From: a virus
Taxonomy: Duplodnaviria > Heunggongvirae > Uroviricota > Caudoviricetes
DNA length: 55,921 bases
Virus record (IMG/VR): IMGVR_UViG_2541047806_000003
Coordinates: 1-55,921 of that record
Direction: 5' to 3' (one strand)
The position numbers and the translations under genes were made by a program. The notes below the pieces were generated by a model. The model ran no database searches. It worked only from the letters and a program-made list of their open reading frames with translations, and was not told where the DNA came from. The stretch's first letter is position 1. Each line of letters begins with the position of its first letter. Of the stretch, positions 3,731 through 46,689 are shown piece by piece.

Positions 3731-3746
3731 TGTGATCTGTGTTACA
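3731..3746. promoter_or_regulatory. CRP-like palindrome TGTGATCTGTGTTACA upstream of moron 1
   Basis: 9/10 match to TGTGA-N6-TCACA; part of recurrent CATTTTGTGATCTG motif. Confidence 0.3.
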
Positions 3747-11061: not shown

Positions 11062-11079
11062 TTTCTCACCTTGTCATTT

Positions 11080-11095
11080 TGTGATCTGCGTCACG
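11080..11095. promoter_or_regulatory. CRP-like palindrome TGTGATCTGCGTCACG upstream of moron 2
   Basis: 9/10 match to TGTGA-N6-TCACA consensus; about 60-70 bp upstream of candidate promoter start. Confidence 0.3.
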
Positions 11096-11116
11096 CTAAA
11101 TCATACCAAAATGGAT

Positions 11117-11145
11117 TGATCGTGGTTTTTACAATATGTATATTT
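11117..11145 (+). promoter_or_regulatory. Candidate sigma70 promoter for moron 2 (TTGATC-N17-TATATT)
   Basis: -35/-10 hexamers with 17-bp spacer read directly from sequence. Confidence 0.3.
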
Positions 11146-11190
11146 TACTCAAACGAAGGGGAAGTTAACAAAATGGCGCGGAGGTGCGTT

Positions 11191-11379
11191 ATGACTGAAA
11201 AGCTATGGAAGTTGACGGTATTCATGACAGACGGTAGGGAAAAGGTTATCGCCCTGTATGACGACGAGGGGGAAGCATTGGTTGACGCGCTTTTACTTGC
11301 TGAGGATGACCGCCTTTTGGGATACCAGATCGAACCTGTCAAATATGATGCTAACAAAAATGAAAAAATACAGTCTTGA
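11191..11379 (+). CDS. Hypothetical small acidic protein (moron 2, gene 1)
   Basis: 62 aa from ATG 11191 with SD GGAGGTG; in-frame upstream ATG at 11174 also possible. Confidence 0.4.
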   Translation: MTEKLWKLTVFMTDGREKVIALYDDEGEALVDALLLAEDDRLLGYQIEPVKYDANKNEKIQS

Positions 11380-11707
11380 TGTGTGGTTAAGTGGTAGCAA
11401 GGAGTGTTTCGGATTATTTGATAGCGAAGAAGTAGCCCTGGAAGAAGGCAGGATTCTTGAATGTAGTTTAGGCCATCCAGTGAAATATACTGCTAATCCG
11501 GTACAGATAGTTGATGAGGTGGAAGATATGAACCCGAAAGATATTAATGTTAACTTCAATGTTAATTTTGCAGACTCTATGGATCAGTCTTGCCCTGGTG
11601 AAATACACGCAAAAGGTTTCCCGGCTGACGATCCAGAAGCAAAACGCGAATACGAAAAAGCTGCGAAAGATTTCTGTATCGATAACCTTTCAGCATTCGA
11701 TAAATAA
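11360..11707 (+). CDS. Hypothetical acidic protein (moron 2, gene 2)
   Basis: 115 aa from ATG 11360 (MKKYSLDVWLSGSKE...); overlaps gene 1 stop region. Confidence 0.45.
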   Translation: MKKYSLDVWLSGSKECFGLFDSEEVALEEGRILECSLGHPVKYTANPVQIVDEVEDMNPKDINVNFNVNFADSMDQSCPGEIHAKGFPADDPEAKREYEKAAKDFCIDNLSAFDK

Positions 11708-11716
11708 GGCGGCAAC

Positions 11717-11965
11717 ATGGGGCGGCGCAATCACGGTGATTATGTGTACACGTTGAAACAGGCCGCCCGCCTCATCGGTTATCATGAACACGAATTTATT
11801 GATTTGCTGATTGAGCGCGGGATACTGTACCAGGTCTGCTTAACGCTGTACCCTAAAGCGAAATACCTACAGGAAAAGTTATTTATCATCATGACGGATG
11901 AAAACCAGGTTAATCACTCATTCGTCACTGATAAGGGCGTTAATTATCTGCGTGATAACTTATAG
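11717..11965 (+). CDS. Small helix-turn-helix DNA-binding protein (moron 2, gene 3)
   Basis: 82 aa; YTLKQAARLIGYHEHEFIDLLIERGIL resembles excisionase/MerR-type HTH. Confidence 0.5.
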   Translation: MGRRNHGDYVYTLKQAARLIGYHEHEFIDLLIERGILYQVCLTLYPKAKYLQEKLFIIMTDENQVNHSFVTDKGVNYLRDNL

Positions 11966-12095
11966 GTGACTGATTATAAAAATAGAAGTTTTGGCGCTAA
12001 TAATAATGGGGTTGATAGTATTTGGCGTTCATGCTGTAGATCTGGACTGGAAAACGATAGCAGAAAATATAGCATTAATGGAAATAGAATAAAAA

Positions 12096-12125
12096 TAACC
12101 CCGCTTCGCGCGGGGTCGTGTTTAT
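12096..12125. terminator. Bidirectional terminator
   Basis: Stem CCCCGC/GCGGGG with A-run upstream and T-rich tract downstream. Confidence 0.5.
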
Positions 12126-12319
12126 ACGCCATCAACCAAAAATAAAACCTCCTTCCCTTCCCGGGATCTACACCCAACGTACCCATCACCAACGTCGTGA
12201 AGATACCATATATCGCCGTTGTCAGCTTTTACAGTAAGGTCGTTGATCTCATAGTCGTCAAACAATGTAAAAGCGTAAGTTTTGTCAACTACACAAGTCC
12301 CGTACATAACAACCCCCAT
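12122..12319 (-). CDS. Small protein, distant member of paralogous family also found at 32.3-33.9 kb
   Basis: 65 aa; shares D-x-G-D/H-x-W-Y motif (ADNGDIWYLHD) with ORFs 32353, 32573, 32822, 33034, 33725; start abuts M-like stop. Confidence 0.45.
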   Translation of the reverse strand: MGVVMYGTCVVDKTYAFTLFDDYEINDLTVKADNGDIWYLHDVGDGYVGCRSREGKEVLFLVDGV

Positions 12320-12672
12320 TAGCCAACAACTTGCTCAAACGTTGCGTTTAGCGTGTACAAAGGCCCGTCTTTAGTCATGCTCCATTGCCGACAGACAAAA
12401 AGCCTTTGCACGTTATCCATTGACGGCGACCAGTAAAAAGCCTCGACCGCGCCGCGCGCCCTCAAGAATGCTTCCGCCTGGATTGCTACGTTTCCACCAT
12501 CACCACATCCGGCGCTACTGCCTTTAAACACCAGGGTGTAGCTATCAAGCAATGGATTGATACCTTTTACCTGTCTTTGCTCATAACCATCGCCCAGCTT
12601 AACAACAGATACGTCTGGCTTCCTGGTCACGCTGTAGCTTCTTTGCGGCGTCCATCTGAACACTTCCGGCAT
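12319..12672 (-). CDS. Minor tail protein (lambda M-like)
   Basis: 117 aa; VKLGDGYEQRQ and C-terminal ATFEQVVG match gpM pattern (lambda ends AEFEQVVN). Confidence 0.85.
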   Translation of the reverse strand: MPEVFRWTPQRSYSVTRKPDVSVVKLGDGYEQRQVKGINPLLDSYTLVFKGSSAGCGDGGNVAIQAEAFLRARGAVEAFYWSPSMDNVQRLFVCRQWSMTKDGPLYTLNATFEQVVG

Positions 12673-12705
12673 AAAACCCCCACAAGTTACATTTTGTATA
12701 TATCT

Positions 12706-12731
12706 TTACGCGCTTCTACGCGAAAAATAAG
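12706..12731. repeat. Conserved 26-bp element TTTACGCGCTTCTACGCGAAAAATAA (copy 1, upstream of M-like gene)
   Basis: 24/26 identical to 25055-25080 upstream of portal gene; contains direct TACGCG repeats. Confidence 0.35.
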
Positions 12732-12743
12732 ATCATTGTCACA
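12727..12743. promoter_or_regulatory. Perfect palindrome ATCATTGT-C-ACAATGAT (operator-like)
   Basis: 8-bp inverted arms read directly; about 30 bp upstream of candidate -35 of moron 3. Confidence 0.35.
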
Positions 12744-12770
12744 ATGATTATAGCTAGTTTACAAAATGGC

Positions 12771-12799
12771 TTCACATAGCACGCAACAAGATGTATATA
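12771..12799 (+). promoter_or_regulatory. Candidate sigma70 promoter for moron 3 (TTCACA-N17-TATATA)
   Basis: Hexamers with 17-bp spacer, TG immediately upstream of -10. Confidence 0.3.
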
Positions 12800-12839
12800 G
12801 AAAGCAAGAAGAAAGTAGTACCAACGAAGGAGGCTCAAA

Positions 12840-12995
12840 ATGAAACGCTATGTAGTAGTAATGCTAAATAACGCATTCGAACAAGTGGAAATAGCAATCG
12901 TTAAGGGTTTCGACGACGCATTCAAATACGGTCAATTCATGATGAATGCGAAAGAAGATGAATACCGGGACTTCTTCCTGAAGGCACTTAACTAA
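12840..12995 (+). CDS. Hypothetical small acidic protein (moron 3, gene 1)
   Basis: 51 aa (MKRYVVVMLNNAFEQVEIAIVKGFDDAF...), strong SD AAGGAGG; below 60-aa ORF-track cutoff. Confidence 0.4.
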   Translation: MKRYVVVMLNNAFEQVEIAIVKGFDDAFKYGQFMMNAKEDEYRDFFLKALN

Positions 12996-13012
12996 GGATG
13001 ATGGGGTGAGTT

Positions 13013-13267
13013 ATGAAACTGGTAGCGATTGACAGAAATCTGAAAGCACAGAAAAACGCACAGGACCGGATCATCAAGAAAGGTAAGGAATTACTTAAAG
13101 CCTTTCTGAGAAAAGAAGTTTACCCCAAAAAGTTACGCGACGGTTACGGATACAAAATGGATATCAATCTTGATTGGAGGCTGTTTAGCGAAGATTTGAA
13201 GGTTTGGTTAATTGTTGAGCACCATGCCTATAACAAGTTATGTGGCGTGAAAGGCACTCATAAGTGA
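13013..13267 (+). CDS. Hypothetical basic protein (moron 3, gene 2)
   Basis: 84 aa, SD GGGGTGAG, 17 nt after gene 1 stop. Confidence 0.5.
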   Translation: MKLVAIDRNLKAQKNAQDRIIKKGKELLKAFLRKEVYPKKLRDGYGYKMDINLDWRLFSEDLKVWLIVEHHAYNKLCGVKGTHK

Positions 13268-13326
13268 GTCGAGATATTCGAAAGGGGATATATCGCGCGG
13301 AATGGTCGTTTATAAATACGAAAAAT

Positions 13327-13359
13327 AACCCCGGCATTGCACCGGGGTTTAGTTTATTT
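13327..13359 (+). terminator. Rho-independent terminator of moron 3
   Basis: Stem AACCCCGG/CCGGGGTT, loop CATTGCA, then T-rich tract. Confidence 0.6.
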
Positions 13360-15696
13360 GCGGCGAGGTTGCAACATTCCGCCTGGTCTTTGAGATTCCC
13401 TTGTTATCATTTTCATGGCTACACGTTCCATTGTTAATTCAAGTCTGCGGCTGTCTTCGTCGCTGAATCCGTTCGTGGTCTGAATGCTGATACTGACAGG
13501 CATACTAATACCGCCACCGCCGCCAATATCACGGCCCGGAATAACTCTGCCGTTCTCGCCAGGGATCATATATTGATTGCCGTTAGATGTCTGGAATAGC
13601 TCCGGCCTGTTGTGTTCCCCTACGCGGTACATATTACCACCAATGACGCTACCACCATTAAAGCGACCGCCGCCGAAAATTGACGTAGCCAGCGACATGA
13701 TCGCAGTGAGCGCCGCCGAACCAGCCGCCGCCCAGCTACCGCCAGTTGACGCCGCAGTTGCCGCCGCTGCTGGGGCCGCCGCCGCAGCAATGCTTCCCTG
13801 AGCTGCTACCGCGCTTGCTGTTGTACTTGTTTGCGTGGCCTTGCTTTGTGTCTCCATCATGATCTGATCTGCTATCCAGTTTGCAGCTATGTCTGAGAGT
13901 CTGTTACCGATATTGCCGAGTATATTGCTTCCTAAGTTAGCAAAAACATCACTCAATGATTGAGTGCCGTTTAACAGGCCAACAAGCGCATTACTCATTC
14001 CGCCTTTAAGGCCATTAACACAATCACCGATAAGGCCGTTTGTGTCGCTTTGCGCCTGCCATTGTTCCCATTTCAGATCGCGGATCTGTTGCTCATAGGC
14101 TAACAATTCCTGTTTCTGTTGCGCTTCAGTAGCGCCCAGGTCTATAAGCATTTGCTTACGGATGGCCCATTCATTTTGCGCCTGCTGGATGGGGTCAACT
14201 TCGCCTTTTAGCTGATCCATCGGGCTTACTATTTGTGACCATTTATCACGCAATTCATCTACCGGAATTTGTGCTAATTCTTCTTTCAGTTCCTTGCCGA
14301 TCCCTTTTTGCGCGGCGCGGTACTCAAGGAGCGTGATTTTACCCTGGGCAAATGCAGCATCAATGGCCTTGCCGTTCTCCAACGCTTTGCGCATGGCGGC
14401 GGCGTCTTTGTTGTACTGATCAGAAACGCTTATACCTTTGTCACCAAGCCGATCAGCTTCCGATTTCTTCTCTTTTTTCTGTTTTTTCGGCTTGTCTACT
14501 GGCTTGTCGAATCCGGTAATCGCTCCGTCATTGGCAGCATTCTGTTCATTTTTCCTTGCTTCTTCTGTAGCCTGGATTGCTGCGGTCAGATCATCCTGTA
14601 GTTGCATGACCTTGCCAACGGTCTTCCCGTATTTCTTCTCGTAGTTGCTGTTATATTCGTCGGTTTGCTCTCCTACTACCTCCTTCATCCATTTATAGCC
14701 ATCCATTAGCGCCTTGATTGGCGTCACCATTGCGATGATCTTCTCTGCCACCTCTCCAGCCTTAACAGCCACATCATCAAACATGTCGATAAATTCGCTA
14801 CCAGCCGTTTTGAGTGTGTCGAAGCAGGTTTTAGCGAATTTAGCGCCATCGCCAAGCCCTTTAACGCCTTTCGTGATCAAGTCGATAGCTGAAACAACGC
14901 CATCTGACACGCCAAAAAGATCATCCAACTGCTCAACAAGGCCCATAATTTCTACTTTAAGCTCATTGATAGCCATGCCGGATGTGCGCGGCAACTGAGC
15001 AAACTTATCGTTTGTTTCCTGCGTAGCCGCCTGTATTGCGTTAACCATCCTTTCAGCCGTGATCTTGCCGTCCAGCATTTCGGCGCGGAACTGGCCCATT
15101 GATAATCCCATATGGCGGGCCATTGTTTGTACGATGGTCGGCGTATTTTCAAGCAGGCTGTTAAATTCTTCGGCACGAAGAACACCGCCGTCGATAGACT
15201 GACGGAATTGACGCATTGAGTTAGACATCTGTTCCGCTGACGCGCCGCCTAATGCACCCATTTTCTGAATAGTGCCAACCAGGTTAAGCAATTGCCCTTC
15301 CGTAGCGGAGGTGTTTTTTAGTGAGATAGCCAGGCCTTGCCATAATTCGCCAGTATCTTTCAGGCTCTGCCCCGTCTCCCTGGATATTGCTTTCAGGCCG
15401 TCGAAAACCCGTCCGGCGGACTCCGCATCGCCCGTAAGCATTTTGATTTTTACGCGAAGCATTTTTGCTTGCTCCGCCATATCCATAAATTGGCGCACAG
15501 CCTCCGCAGCAATTAGCAGATGGATAACCCTGGTCAGTGCCTTGATGGATGTTTTCAGGGTGTTTACCTGGCGGTCAGCCTGTTTTGCGCCGCGCTCTAT
15601 ACGATCAAAGGCCTGGTCTGCCTGTCGTTGTGCAACGAGAAGTTGACCAGTTTTCGCATCAACTTCGTAATAAATTGTACCTACACTGGTAGCCAT
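13354..15696 (-). CDS. Tail tape measure protein
   Basis: 780 aa, alpha-helical, Ala/Gly-rich C-terminal part, position between chaperone and M-like. Confidence 0.85.
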   Translation of the reverse strand: MATSVGTIYYEVDAKTGQLLVAQRQADQAFDRIERGAKQADRQVNTLKTSIKALTRVIHLLIAAEAVRQFMDMAEQAKMLRVKIKMLTGDAESAGRVFDGLKAISRETGQSLKDTGELWQGLAISLKNTSATEGQLLNLVGTIQKMGALGGASAEQMSNSMRQFRQSIDGGVLRAEEFNSLLENTPTIVQTMARHMGLSMGQFRAEMLDGKITAERMVNAIQAATQETNDKFAQLPRTSGMAINELKVEIMGLVEQLDDLFGVSDGVVSAIDLITKGVKGLGDGAKFAKTCFDTLKTAGSEFIDMFDDVAVKAGEVAEKIIAMVTPIKALMDGYKWMKEVVGEQTDEYNSNYEKKYGKTVGKVMQLQDDLTAAIQATEEARKNEQNAANDGAITGFDKPVDKPKKQKKEKKSEADRLGDKGISVSDQYNKDAAAMRKALENGKAIDAAFAQGKITLLEYRAAQKGIGKELKEELAQIPVDELRDKWSQIVSPMDQLKGEVDPIQQAQNEWAIRKQMLIDLGATEAQQKQELLAYEQQIRDLKWEQWQAQSDTNGLIGDCVNGLKGGMSNALVGLLNGTQSLSDVFANLGSNILGNIGNRLSDIAANWIADQIMMETQSKATQTSTTASAVAAQGSIAAAAAPAAAATAASTGGSWAAAGSAALTAIMSLATSIFGGGRFNGGSVIGGNMYRVGEHNRPELFQTSNGNQYMIPGENGRVIPGRDIGGGGGISMPVSISIQTTNGFSDEDSRRLELTMERVAMKMITRESQRPGGMLQPRRK

Positions 15697-15823
15697 GATT
15701 TAACCTCATGCAAAAATGTGATCTGTGTATCTATTTTATACAAAATGGCTTTACTTCAACGACTCCATTTTGTATAAGGAAGCTAAAGGGAATGGTCAGT
15801 AAATCAAGTTAGCGTGGTGGGTT

Positions 15824-16483
15824 ATGAAACGGTTAGCAAAAGTGGCAATGATTGCGGCGGTATTGGGTCTGGTTGGTTGCAATGAGGATAATGAAAAAGC
15901 GCCTATAGTGACCAATCAAGAGCAACAAGCATTAGCAGAGAAAAATGCTAAATGGCTTGCAGAACAACAAGCAAAACAAGCCGCATACGATGCACAGTTA
16001 GAAAAAGAAAATGCTGGTAAACAGTGGCTTGTAGTTGAAAGAAAAGATGATATGCAGGACGCAAAAAACGTATTCCTTTTTGTGAAAGCAGAACAATTCA
16101 GCGGAAGTCTTGATGCTTTCCCGACACTGAAGGCACAGGATAAGAATAAACCGGTATTAACAATCGCTTGCCAGGGTAATAAAACAAAAATGTTCGTAGC
16201 ATGGTCACACCATGTAACTGACGCCGGGGACACTACTTATATTAACTACCGGATCGGCGTTCACAAAGCTGTAGCTACTGAGTGGTGGCGGTCAACTAAT
16301 TATAAAGCTCTTGGATTATGGGACGGCAAAAAAGCCATCCCAATGATTAAAAAACTGGTTAACGAAAAACAATTCATCATTGAAGTAGTGCCGGAAGCTG
16401 GCGACATTGAGAAAGCAGTGTTTAACATTGATGGTCTTTATAACCACATCGACAAAGTGAAAAACGCTTGCAACTGGAATTAA
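15824..16483 (+). CDS. Lipoprotein (moron 4, gene 1)
   Basis: 219 aa; signal peptide plus lipobox LVGC; SD GGTGGG. Confidence 0.6.
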   Translation: MKRLAKVAMIAAVLGLVGCNEDNEKAPIVTNQEQQALAEKNAKWLAEQQAKQAAYDAQLEKENAGKQWLVVERKDDMQDAKNVFLFVKAEQFSGSLDAFPTLKAQDKNKPVLTIACQGNKTKMFVAWSHHVTDAGDTTYINYRIGVHKAVATEWWRSTNYKALGLWDGKKAIPMIKKLVNEKQFIIEVVPEAGDIEKAVFNIDGLYNHIDKVKNACNWN

Positions 16484-16493
16484 GGGGTAAATC

Positions 16494-16868
16494 ATGAAAA
16501 AAATAATCAAAGCGGTTCTCATTGGTGTTATGGCTTTAGCTCTTACAGGGTGCGCAAGATCAACTGATTTCGTTAAGTTAGCTGATAAAAATTTGCAAGT
16601 TGGAATGACTTGTGAGCAAGTGAATAAAATAATGGGGGAACCACAAAGAATCGAGCATGACGGTAATTATAGTTATCACGTATGGTATTCAGTAACCAGC
16701 ACGATAGGATTTACTTACATGGATGTTGAAGAATTATCCCCTTCAAGGGTTATCGCAAAGTTTGATAACTGCATCCTAAAAGAATGGAAAGATCGCAGTA
16801 AGGCAAAGTCTGTATACAATACAATCACACACAGTTCACCAGGTACAGCAATTAAAGATTTCAATTAG
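16494..16868 (+). CDS. BamE/SmpA-OmlA-like lipoprotein (moron 4, gene 2)
   Basis: 124 aa; lipobox LTGC; LQVGMTCEQVNKIMGEP resembles BamE motif. Confidence 0.55.
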   Translation: MKKIIKAVLIGVMALALTGCARSTDFVKLADKNLQVGMTCEQVNKIMGEPQRIEHDGNYSYHVWYSVTSTIGFTYMDVEELSPSRVIAKFDNCILKEWKDRSKAKSVYNTITHSSPGTAIKDFN

Positions 16869-45918: not shown

Positions 45919-46010
45919 TCCATTTTGTATACTTTTTTAAAATATTTTATATGCCATTGATATTTAAATAATAAATAACGTTTCCTGTTTACGTTTTGGT
46001 GTTTTCCAGG

Positions 46011-46041: not shown

Positions 46042-46689
46042 TTATGGCAGGTTTACGATCTTCGCATCAACCACCACGCCTATAATTTTTGATTCTGGAT
46101 TCATAGGGATTGGCGGATACAGCGGATTGAGCGAACGTAAAAGCCTTTGACCTCCATCAATAATCAACTGTTTAAACGTCGGTATCTGCCCTTCCTCAAG
46201 CTGGGCTATAACCAGTTTGCCGTCAATAGCTGGCGCGTGCGGGTCCACAAGTATCATCGTCCCCGCCGGGATGCTCAACCCCTGCGGCGCGTTCATTGAT
46301 TCACCTTTGGCAACCAGCCAGTAACTGTCATCTGAACAAATAACGCTAGTCGTAACGTGTCGTAATGCTGAACGCCTTGCGTCATCCATATTGTTTACTG
46401 TGTCCTTCCAGTCAATAACCGGGTAACTACCTAAATCACGCGGCGGCACGGCCTGAAGTGTATTAGAAACAGAATCATCAATGACCATACCATCATGTGT
46501 AACAGTGAACTGCCGACGACCAAGCTCTCGCATAATCCGCGCAATATCTTCAAGATTTGGCTCGCGGCGACCGTTCAGCCAGTGTGACAGGCCGCCTTTA
46601 GTTATCCCCATGCGATCCGCTAGTGAATCCTGGCTCATGCCCTGCGCCCGCATGAGCTGCTTTGCTAAGTCATACCATTTTGTTTTCAT
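46042..46689 (-). CDS. CI-type prophage repressor (HTH plus S24/LexA-like peptidase)
   Basis: 215 aa; N-terminal HTH (QDSLADRMGITKGGLSHW), C-terminal S24 Ser-Lys region (AKGESMN ... IIGVVVDAK). Confidence 0.85.
   Translation of the reverse strand: MKTKWYDLAKQLMRAQGMSQDSLADRMGITKGGLSHWLNGRREPNLEDIARIMRELGRRQFTVTHDGMVIDDSVSNTLQAVPPRDLGSYPVIDWKDTVNNMDDARRSALRHVTTSVICSDDSYWLVAKGESMNAPQGLSIPAGTMILVDPHAPAIDGKLVIAQLEEGQIPTFKQLIIDGGQRLLRSLNPLYPPIPMNPESKIIGVVVDAKIVNLP

Follow-up and report, generated by a model that had tools for sequence, protein, structure and literature searches.

An antisense two-gene cassette between tail genes M and H of mEp021-like temperate coliphages: a possible moron pairing a RelE/ParE-fold protein with a small accessory partner

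The stretch of DNA analysed here, referred to throughout as the window, comprises the 55,921 nucleotides of IMG/VR virus record IMGVR_UViG_2541047806_000003, a member, whether prophage or phage, of the “mEpimmI” (mEp021-like) group of temperate coliphages, and the element in question is a cassette of two small open reading frames (ORFs), ORF A and ORF B, encoded antisense to the flanking minor tail protein M and tape-measure genes. The region around the cassette (12600-13420) shares 99.9% identity with prophages of E. coli M1/5, FAH, and MS 21-1 and 82-84% identity with phages mEp021, mEp554, and mEp010, and is carried by 32 of 5426 complete E. coli genomes. An original prediction made from the sequence had sited the cassette between tail genes M and H on the opposite strand, which is borne out by the two flanking genes, both on the minus strand and recognised as PF05939 and PF20155, respectively. 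The features of the locus are as follows.

12319-12672, minus strand: minor tail protein M-like gene (PF05939, E=1.2e-27; phrog_14), the left flank.
12707-12722, plus strand: direct repeat (period 10 bp) TACGCG-N4-TACGCG in a strongly conserved part of the leader; for either copy, the sequence is unbroken in 27 of 28 aligned relatives.
12728-12743, no strand assigned: CRP-like site TAAGA-N6-TCACA, half-sites conserved and spacer variable among 28 relatives.
12732-12748, no strand assigned: perfect 17-bp palindrome ATCATTGTCACAATGAT, an exact match overlapping the CRP-like site.
12760-12769, plus strand: TACAAAATGG box, nearly invariant in relatives and abutting the candidate -35 element.
12771-12776 and 12794-12799, plus strand: candidate sigma-70 promoter TTCACA-17-TATATA ahead of the cassette.
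12828-12833, plus strand: Shine-Dalgarno sequence AGGAGG of ORF A, read from the sequence, 6 nt before the ATG.
12840-12995, plus strand: ORF A, 51 amino acids (phrog_29810).
13013-13267, plus strand: ORF B, 84 amino acids (PF24732, ParE_like).
13327-13349, both strands: hairpin intrinsic terminator with a T-rich tail, scoring as a terminator on each strand.
13354-15696, minus strand: tail length tape-measure gene (PF20155, E=1e-49; phrog_1538), the right flank.

ORF A and ORF B are adjacent and co-directional and share a common leader and a single terminator, forming one compact unit. In the window, the gap from the stop codon of ORF A to the start codon of ORF B is exactly 17 nt; ORF A has a strong ribosome-binding site and that of ORF B is weaker. 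The terminator hairpin closes the cassette and sits 5 nt past the stop codon of the tape-measure gene. Most of the layout given in the original prediction thus stood, namely the perfect 17-bp palindrome, the basic 84-residue product (isoelectric point 9.9, net charge +9.8) encoded 17 nt after the first ORF, and the clean terminator, together with the length and strong Shine-Dalgarno sequence of the first ORF, the supposedly acidic product of which is only mildly so (isoelectric point 5.1, net charge -1.5). Some gene callers give ORF A 68 amino acids; in the window this added stretch does not share its reading frame, and the conserved product is therefore the 51-residue form with the strong ribosome-binding site. 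Both ORFs are real genes under purifying selection, with a median pairwise ratio of nonsynonymous to synonymous substitution rates (dN/dS) of 0.035 among 19 distinct alleles of ORF A and 0.062 among 27 distinct alleles of ORF B. That the two might be non-functional remnants or chance ORFs in a tail-gene spacer, as their shortness and their mostly hypothetical annotation could suggest, is in effect refuted by this selection and by their conservation, both being intact in all examined loci that carry them, with ORF B scoring above its Pfam threshold and confident structure models obtained for the two proteins.

The distribution of the cassette follows that of its phage group. Where the neighbouring M protein is at least 82% identical to that of the window, ORF B is present in 30 of 30 loci and ORF A in 28 of 30; where it is about 68% identical, both are absent in all 50 loci, in 48 of which the end of the tape-measure gene could be located, often directly abutting M. 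The cassette is therefore an insertion between genes that are adjacent in related phages, as is characteristic of a moron, and ORF B is fixed in the mEp021-like (mEpimmI) group. The ORF B loci were found with the single ORF B protein as query, and the diverse ORF B alignment contained no block conserved enough for a degenerate-pattern search for loci.

No family known to it had been named for either protein in the original prediction. For ORF B, this is superseded by a match to Pfam PF24732, “ParE-like toxin domain”, over residues 19-75 (45.3 bits, gathering score 24.4, E=9e-12), a domain present in all ORF B homologues. Of the 32 E. coli genomes, many have ORF B labelled 'ParE family toxin-like protein' by RefSeq, and most records call both products hypothetical proteins. 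NCBIfam, PADLOC, and PDB sequence searches (by single sequence and, for structures, also by profile) gave no match for ORF B. An AlphaFold2 (AF2) model of ORF B built from 19 family members reached a mean predicted local distance difference test (pLDDT) score of 86.9 with the topology b-b-a-b-b-b-a, showing the small alpha/beta fold of the RelE/ParE type, in which a helical segment packs on a three- to four-stranded antiparallel sheet. Foldseek comparison of the model with the PDB placed YoeB, YafQ, HP0894, HigB, RelK, and ParE2 at the top, with weak scores (best E 0.07, TM ~0.49). Membership of ORF B in the RelE/ParE superfamily is regarded as established at the level of fold. Across the PF24732 alignment, which extends down to 26% identity, the residues K40, L41, R56, and H70 never vary, K23 and N74 hardly do, and Y73 is replaced by F in a few members.

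ORF A, as had been predicted, falls into no recognisable family, having no Pfam, NCBIfam, or PADLOC match; its sole family is phrog_29810, which bears no functional label, and its homologues are all at least 76% identical and all E. coli prophage proteins. Comparison with solved structures by single sequence or profile search yielded nothing meaningful. In its best AF2 model (pLDDT 95), ORF A forms a compact domain, b(3-9)-b(15-22)-a(24-37)-b(44-50), without a disordered tail such as wraps RelE/ParE toxins, and a fold search with this model gave generic matches only, ribbon-helix-helix, helix-turn-helix, Phd/YefM, and AbrB folds being absent from the top 60. As modelled, ORF A thus appears to have neither an antitoxin-type nor a DNA-binding fold, and the antitoxin domain of a type II toxin-antitoxin (TA) system was not found in it. 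An RNA antitoxin or known small RNA in the region was also considered and set aside, Rfam giving a sub-threshold small nucleolar RNA match only.

The two genes are linked asymmetrically. ORF A is always accompanied by ORF B 20-24 nt downstream, in 43 of 43 IMG/VR loci carrying ORF A, and ORF B occurs without ORF A in two of its 32 loci, one on an IMG/VR contig (L025) and the other (L028) being E. coli UMNK88, the chromosome of which (NC_017641.1) confirms the B-only arrangement. In both cases, ORF B sits directly behind the same conserved leader and is full length with all family-invariant residues kept, and every substitution in the L025 allele is also found in alleles linked to ORF A. Nucleotide divergence between these two copies is about 6%, which indicates that the B-only arrangement has persisted. 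The UMNK88 prophage further shows that at least one strain tolerates ORF B when natively expressed.

The leader shared by these loci contains a likely promoter. A consensus sigma-70 scan found no plus-strand promoter in 12673-12839, probably because the candidate -10 element ends in A where the scan requires T; yet both hexamers at 12771-12799 are conserved in relatives, and the region between them is the least conserved part of the leader, as expected of a promoter spacer. The same architecture, in which 1 nt separates the TACAAAATGG box from a -35-like hexamer and 17 nt separate this hexamer from a -10-like one, is found at four places in the window with the box centred near -41.5. Given the conserved hexamers, the variable spacer, and this recurrence, a promoter here, such as the original prediction had proposed, is accepted as likely, its absence from the consensus scan notwithstanding. 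Upstream of it, the CRP-like site agrees with 8 of 10 consensus positions in the window and with 9 of 10 in most relatives (TGAGA-N6-TCACA), the conserved pattern being T(G/A)AGA-N6-TCACA, in which the half-sites hardly vary and the 6 nt between them do, and its centre lies 35.5 bp upstream of the candidate -35 element.

The explanation favoured here, to which a probability of roughly 45% is attached, is that the cassette is a lineage-fixed moron made up of a RelE/ParE-fold effector, B, and a dispensable accessory, A, that depends on B. The promoter, the two genes, and the bidirectional terminator would together form an autonomous moron, transcribed against the late operon and, in the mEp021-like (mEpimmI) temperate coliphages, fixed at the site between tail genes M and H. 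B would be the effector, with PF24732 representing a mobile-element branch of the RelE/ParE superfamily, and toxin-like activity is what we infer for it, more likely as a translation inhibitor of the RelE/YoeB/YafQ type, binding the ribosome or mRNA, and less likely as a gyrase poison in the manner of ParE. A, translated first, would be a dedicated accessory that presumably binds B and restrains or modulates it. Expression would proceed from the conserved TACAAAATGG-box promoter type, which the phage appears to use in at least three other places, with the CRP-like site upstream and perhaps under CRP control, and the palindrome would have no role as an antitoxin operator. Since A appears dispensable, the pair would be TA-like in layout rather than a canonical autoregulated type II module. 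Neighbouring antisense units of the tail cluster, described below, encode lipoproteins, a type of protein found to bring about superinfection exclusion in this phage group (PMC11893012), and are counted in favour of this explanation. The preference for translation inhibition over gyrase poisoning is our inference; K40, R56, and H70, with Y73/N74, lie at strand and helix positions resembling those of the catalytic residues R61, R81, and Y87 of RelE.

Several observations weigh against this explanation. A profile of the ORF B family compared with single RelE, YoeB, and RK2 ParE sequences gave nothing significant, and the mapping of catalytic residues consequently goes by secondary-structure position only. 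The five AF2 models of ORF A spread over pLDDT 57-95, the four other than the best falling at 57-86. The literature searched contained no experiment or transcript data on the cassette. That ORF B is tolerated on its own could also be a sign that it has no toxicity. In addition, identical A proteins occur with ORF B alleles that are 67-82% identical to that of the window, a pattern that gives no sign of co-evolution in the sequences compared and that neither proves nor excludes binding between the two proteins.

Some of the same facts bear on the strongest alternative, a tentative one that is nonetheless quite possible, in which B is a toxin fold co-opted for a non-lethal role when the element enters or wakes in a cell, with no TA relationship at all. 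B could then exert a transient modulation of translation, gyrase, or a regulator, and A would be a small cargo gene without relation to B or an addition peculiar to the lineage, as the solitary ORF B of UMNK88 and the identical A proteins beside divergent B alleles would allow. The wider PF24732 family also speaks for it. This family is small, with ten representatives at E <= 0.001 among 1.8 billion proteins, and nothing on it was found in the searched literature, which as far as it shows contains no experimentally characterised member. Homologues of ORF B lie in the long same-strand small-gene arrays of ~350-kb Rak2-like jumbo phages such as phAPEC6, K64-1, and GAP32, these being early-gene arrays, and the homologue in the Klebsiella jumbo phage Muenster is annotated as a 'putative YafQ-like ribonuclease toxin'. 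Others are found in a T7-like phage, immediately upstream of the T7-type RNA polymerase gene and near a T7 gp0.4-like gene, in Sortsne-like phages, and on Pantoea plasmids resembling the integrative and conjugative element (ICE) ICEclc, where the homologue lies between a BisC-like DUF2857 gene and an STY4528-family gene, a context that corresponds to the ICEclc-type regulatory backbone (PMC7423338). One such plasmid gene (locus L170, 2501-2749, Pantoea agglomerans plasmid NZ_CP134742.1) scores 73.5 bits against PF24732, above the ORF B of the window, and is flanked by BisD-like ParB and BisC-like DUF2857 genes on one side and the STY4528-family gene on the other, with no small partner gene.

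No homologue of ORF A was found beside the PF24732 members of the jumbo, T7-like, or Sortsne-like phages or of the ICEclc-like plasmids, nor did any of the neighbouring genes tested match an antitoxin family. The tight gene packing of these early regions, however, makes the absence of a partner hard to judge, and non-homologous partners could be present; in Sortsne, the upstream gene overlaps the homologue by 4 nt. Against a co-opted, partnerless B also stands the finding that A never occurs without B and always lies 20-24 nt upstream of it, which argues for a functional link between the two, and the family-invariant basic and histidine residues suggest that an active site has been retained.

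A bolder proposal, which must be considered doubtful, holds that PF24732 comprises distinct RelE-fold “establishment” effectors rather than addiction toxins, deployed by temperate, T7-like, and jumbo phages and by ICEclc-type elements on entry or activation. A would in that case be a new folded protein modulator, unrelated to all known antitoxin families and acquired only in the mEpimmI lineage, and the pair would be expressed from a box-type, phage-wide promoter that may respond to cAMP-CRP.

A canonical type II TA module serving addiction or abortive infection, in which A would be a labile antitoxin and A or an A-B complex would repress transcription through the 17-bp palindrome, was the original prediction and is unlikely. 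Its outward layout is certainly present, in that a small gene with a strong ribosome-binding site precedes, by 17 nt and in the same direction, a toxin-superfamily gene with a weaker one, the pair ends in a terminator, A is never found without B, and the host element is a prophage; what failed to hold are the obligate pairing, the canonical antitoxin, and the operator. In a type II system the toxin gene is not kept without its cognate antitoxin, but intact ORF B stands alone in UMNK88, the genome of an isolate, and in L025, a diverged phage from a metagenome. A has neither family match nor, as modelled, any DNA-binding or antitoxin fold; B is fixed across the phage group rather than patchily distributed; and PADLOC-DB v2 yielded no defence family for either protein at E values up to 10, leaving the suggested small abortive-infection or other known defence module unsupported.

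The palindrome fares no better as an operator. The window contains five perfect palindromes (arms of at least 8 nt, loops of 0-4 nt), as against 5.0 in first-order Markov simulations. Perfect copies of the 17-mer are confined to ten near-identical loci. In the remaining 12 sequence variants, between 2 and 6 of the 8 arm positions can pair, and compensatory changes are absent. Nor does the location of the palindrome suit an operator: it does not overlap the candidate promoter but precedes its -35 element, and its centre is some 66 bp away from the inferred transcription start, on the upstream side. A conserved operator overlapping the promoter, as expected of type II TA loci, was accordingly not found; the palindrome is regarded as a lineage-specific accident overlapping the CRP-like site, and its “operator” label should be dropped.

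The regulatory elements of the leader are repeated elsewhere in the window. The TACAAAATGG box occurs in 25 copies (at most one mismatch) against 5.4 expected, a number reached in 0 of 100 shuffles; example sites are 12760, 13151, 15739, 15765, 23838, 38416, 38480, 45920, 46763, and 50737, and the boxes often form inverted pairs (15739/15765 and 32295/32321, both with 16-nt gaps, and 38416/38480). Besides the candidate promoter of the cassette, the box-type promoters are the following.

Near 11116 (11116-11144), plus strand: TTGATC/TATATT, ahead of a set of ORFs between tail genes L and M (the L-M island).
Near 15750, plus strand: TTTACT/TATAAG, ahead of two lipoprotein genes.
Near 45920, minus strand: TTGACT/TATATT, downstream of a CI-like repressor gene.

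CRP-like sites of the form TGTGA-N6-TCACA (at most one mismatch) number seven against 1.6 expected, at 3731, 11080, 32336, 38456, 41858, 46715, and 50142, the one at 11080 being upstream of the L-M island, and several take the form TGTGATC-N4-(A/G)TCACG and adjoin TACAAAATGG boxes. Their association suggests a recurring composite regulatory module, which may be read by CRP or by a phage factor of similar specificity. The CI-like repressor gene (46042-46689, minus strand, 215 amino acids) is followed by a terminator and then by the leftward TTGACT-17-TATATT promoter with its box at 45920-45929, possibly the pL equivalent of the phage. The idea that TACAAAATGG is the operator of the CI-like repressor was considered and, on inspection by eye, found unsupported, there being one copy per putative early promoter; the cI-cro intergenic region holds other repeats, which contain CTTGCA.

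Three antisense units in the tail cluster, the A-B cassette among them, share this promoter type. The L-M island (11062-12125) is a second antisense moron island, with plus-strand ORFs at 11191-11379 (phrog_29559), 11360-11707 (phrog_38567), and 11717-11965 (phrog_5689), the last of which bears the annotation antirepressor in mEp021. Ahead of these ORFs stand a near-consensus CRP-like site, TGTGATCTGCGTCACG (11080-11095), and TTGATC-17-TATATT, and the island closes with a GC-rich hairpin near 12097-12117, an architecture that matches that of the A-B cassette. A proposal that ORF A is a paralogue of the small ORFs of this island was rejected, no hhalign signal being obtained. Directly downstream of M on the same strand, a 65-residue ORF (12122-12319, minus strand, phrog_3249) is conserved in mEp021 (mEp021_70) and MagusPhagus. 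The third unit (15824-16868), which separates the tape-measure gene from the tail genes upstream of it, consists of two plus-strand lipoprotein-like ORFs of 219 and 124 amino acids, both with lipobox signal peptides and preceded by a TACAAAATGG-box promoter. Lipoprotein genes in the structural cluster of mEpimmI phages confer superinfection exclusion (PMC11893012), and those of the window are probably the ones described; the A-B cassette is absent from the discussion in that paper.

The interval between ORF B and the terminator (13268-13326) is a variable cargo slot in relatives and is empty in the window, at 59 nt. It corresponds to 3759-5093 in L001, 3671-3958 in L002, and 3264-3550 in L025, and it contains a 30-residue and a 58-residue ORF in several phages and the gene for a zinc-ribbon protein plus another gene in mEp021. 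The terminator is kept at the end of the cassette in relatives with extra cargo.

If B is active, the whole of a common group of gut E. coli prophages has a RelE/ParE-fold effector fixed within the tail cluster, with possible effects on host physiology, prophage stability, and the capacity to resist other phages. Natural variants with B alone, together with the relatives in lytic phages and ICEs that lack an antitoxin, provide a ready comparison for asking whether mobile toxin-fold proteins invariably require one, and what a 51-residue, non-canonical partner adds. The family and name of B are already public, and toxin-fold genes in prophages, like morons, are familiar. Less ordinary are the non-canonical partner, the occurrence of the “toxin” but never the “antitoxin” alone, and a family without a recognisable antitoxin in lytic phages and ICEs.

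Among known systems, the closest are the RelE/ParE type II TAs such as YefM-YoeB, RelBE, DinJ-YafQ, HigBA, and ParDE, including PaaA2-ParE2 of an E. coli O157:H7 prophage. The cassette resembles them in the superfamily fold and ParE_like Pfam match of B, in the size (84 amino acids) and basicity of that protein, in the small same-strand gene that precedes it, and in its residence on a prophage. It differs in that A has neither a known antitoxin fold nor a predicted disordered toxin-binding tail, in having no conserved operator, and in the natural occurrence of the toxin-like gene without its partner; the similarity of B to RelE, YoeB, and ParE is, moreover, not significant at the sequence level. 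With the other PF24732 members, B shares the invariant K, L, R, and H and a location on mobile elements of Enterobacterales, but those members lie in early-gene arrays or ICE regulatory operons without a homologue of A, and the A-B pair as an antisense moron of the tail cluster is seen only in the mEpimmI group. Finally, lom and bor of lambda and gp15 of HK97 are morons of lambdoid phages (general background and PMC3594210), and the cassette is akin to lambdoid morons and to the mEpimmI exclusion lipoprotein genes as an independent unit with its own terminator inserted between structural genes, and to the lipoprotein unit at 15824-16868 in its promoter architecture as well. It departs from them in its cargo, a toxin-fold protein with a partner rather than a membrane or exclusion protein, and from the typical moron in being fixed in every group member examined.

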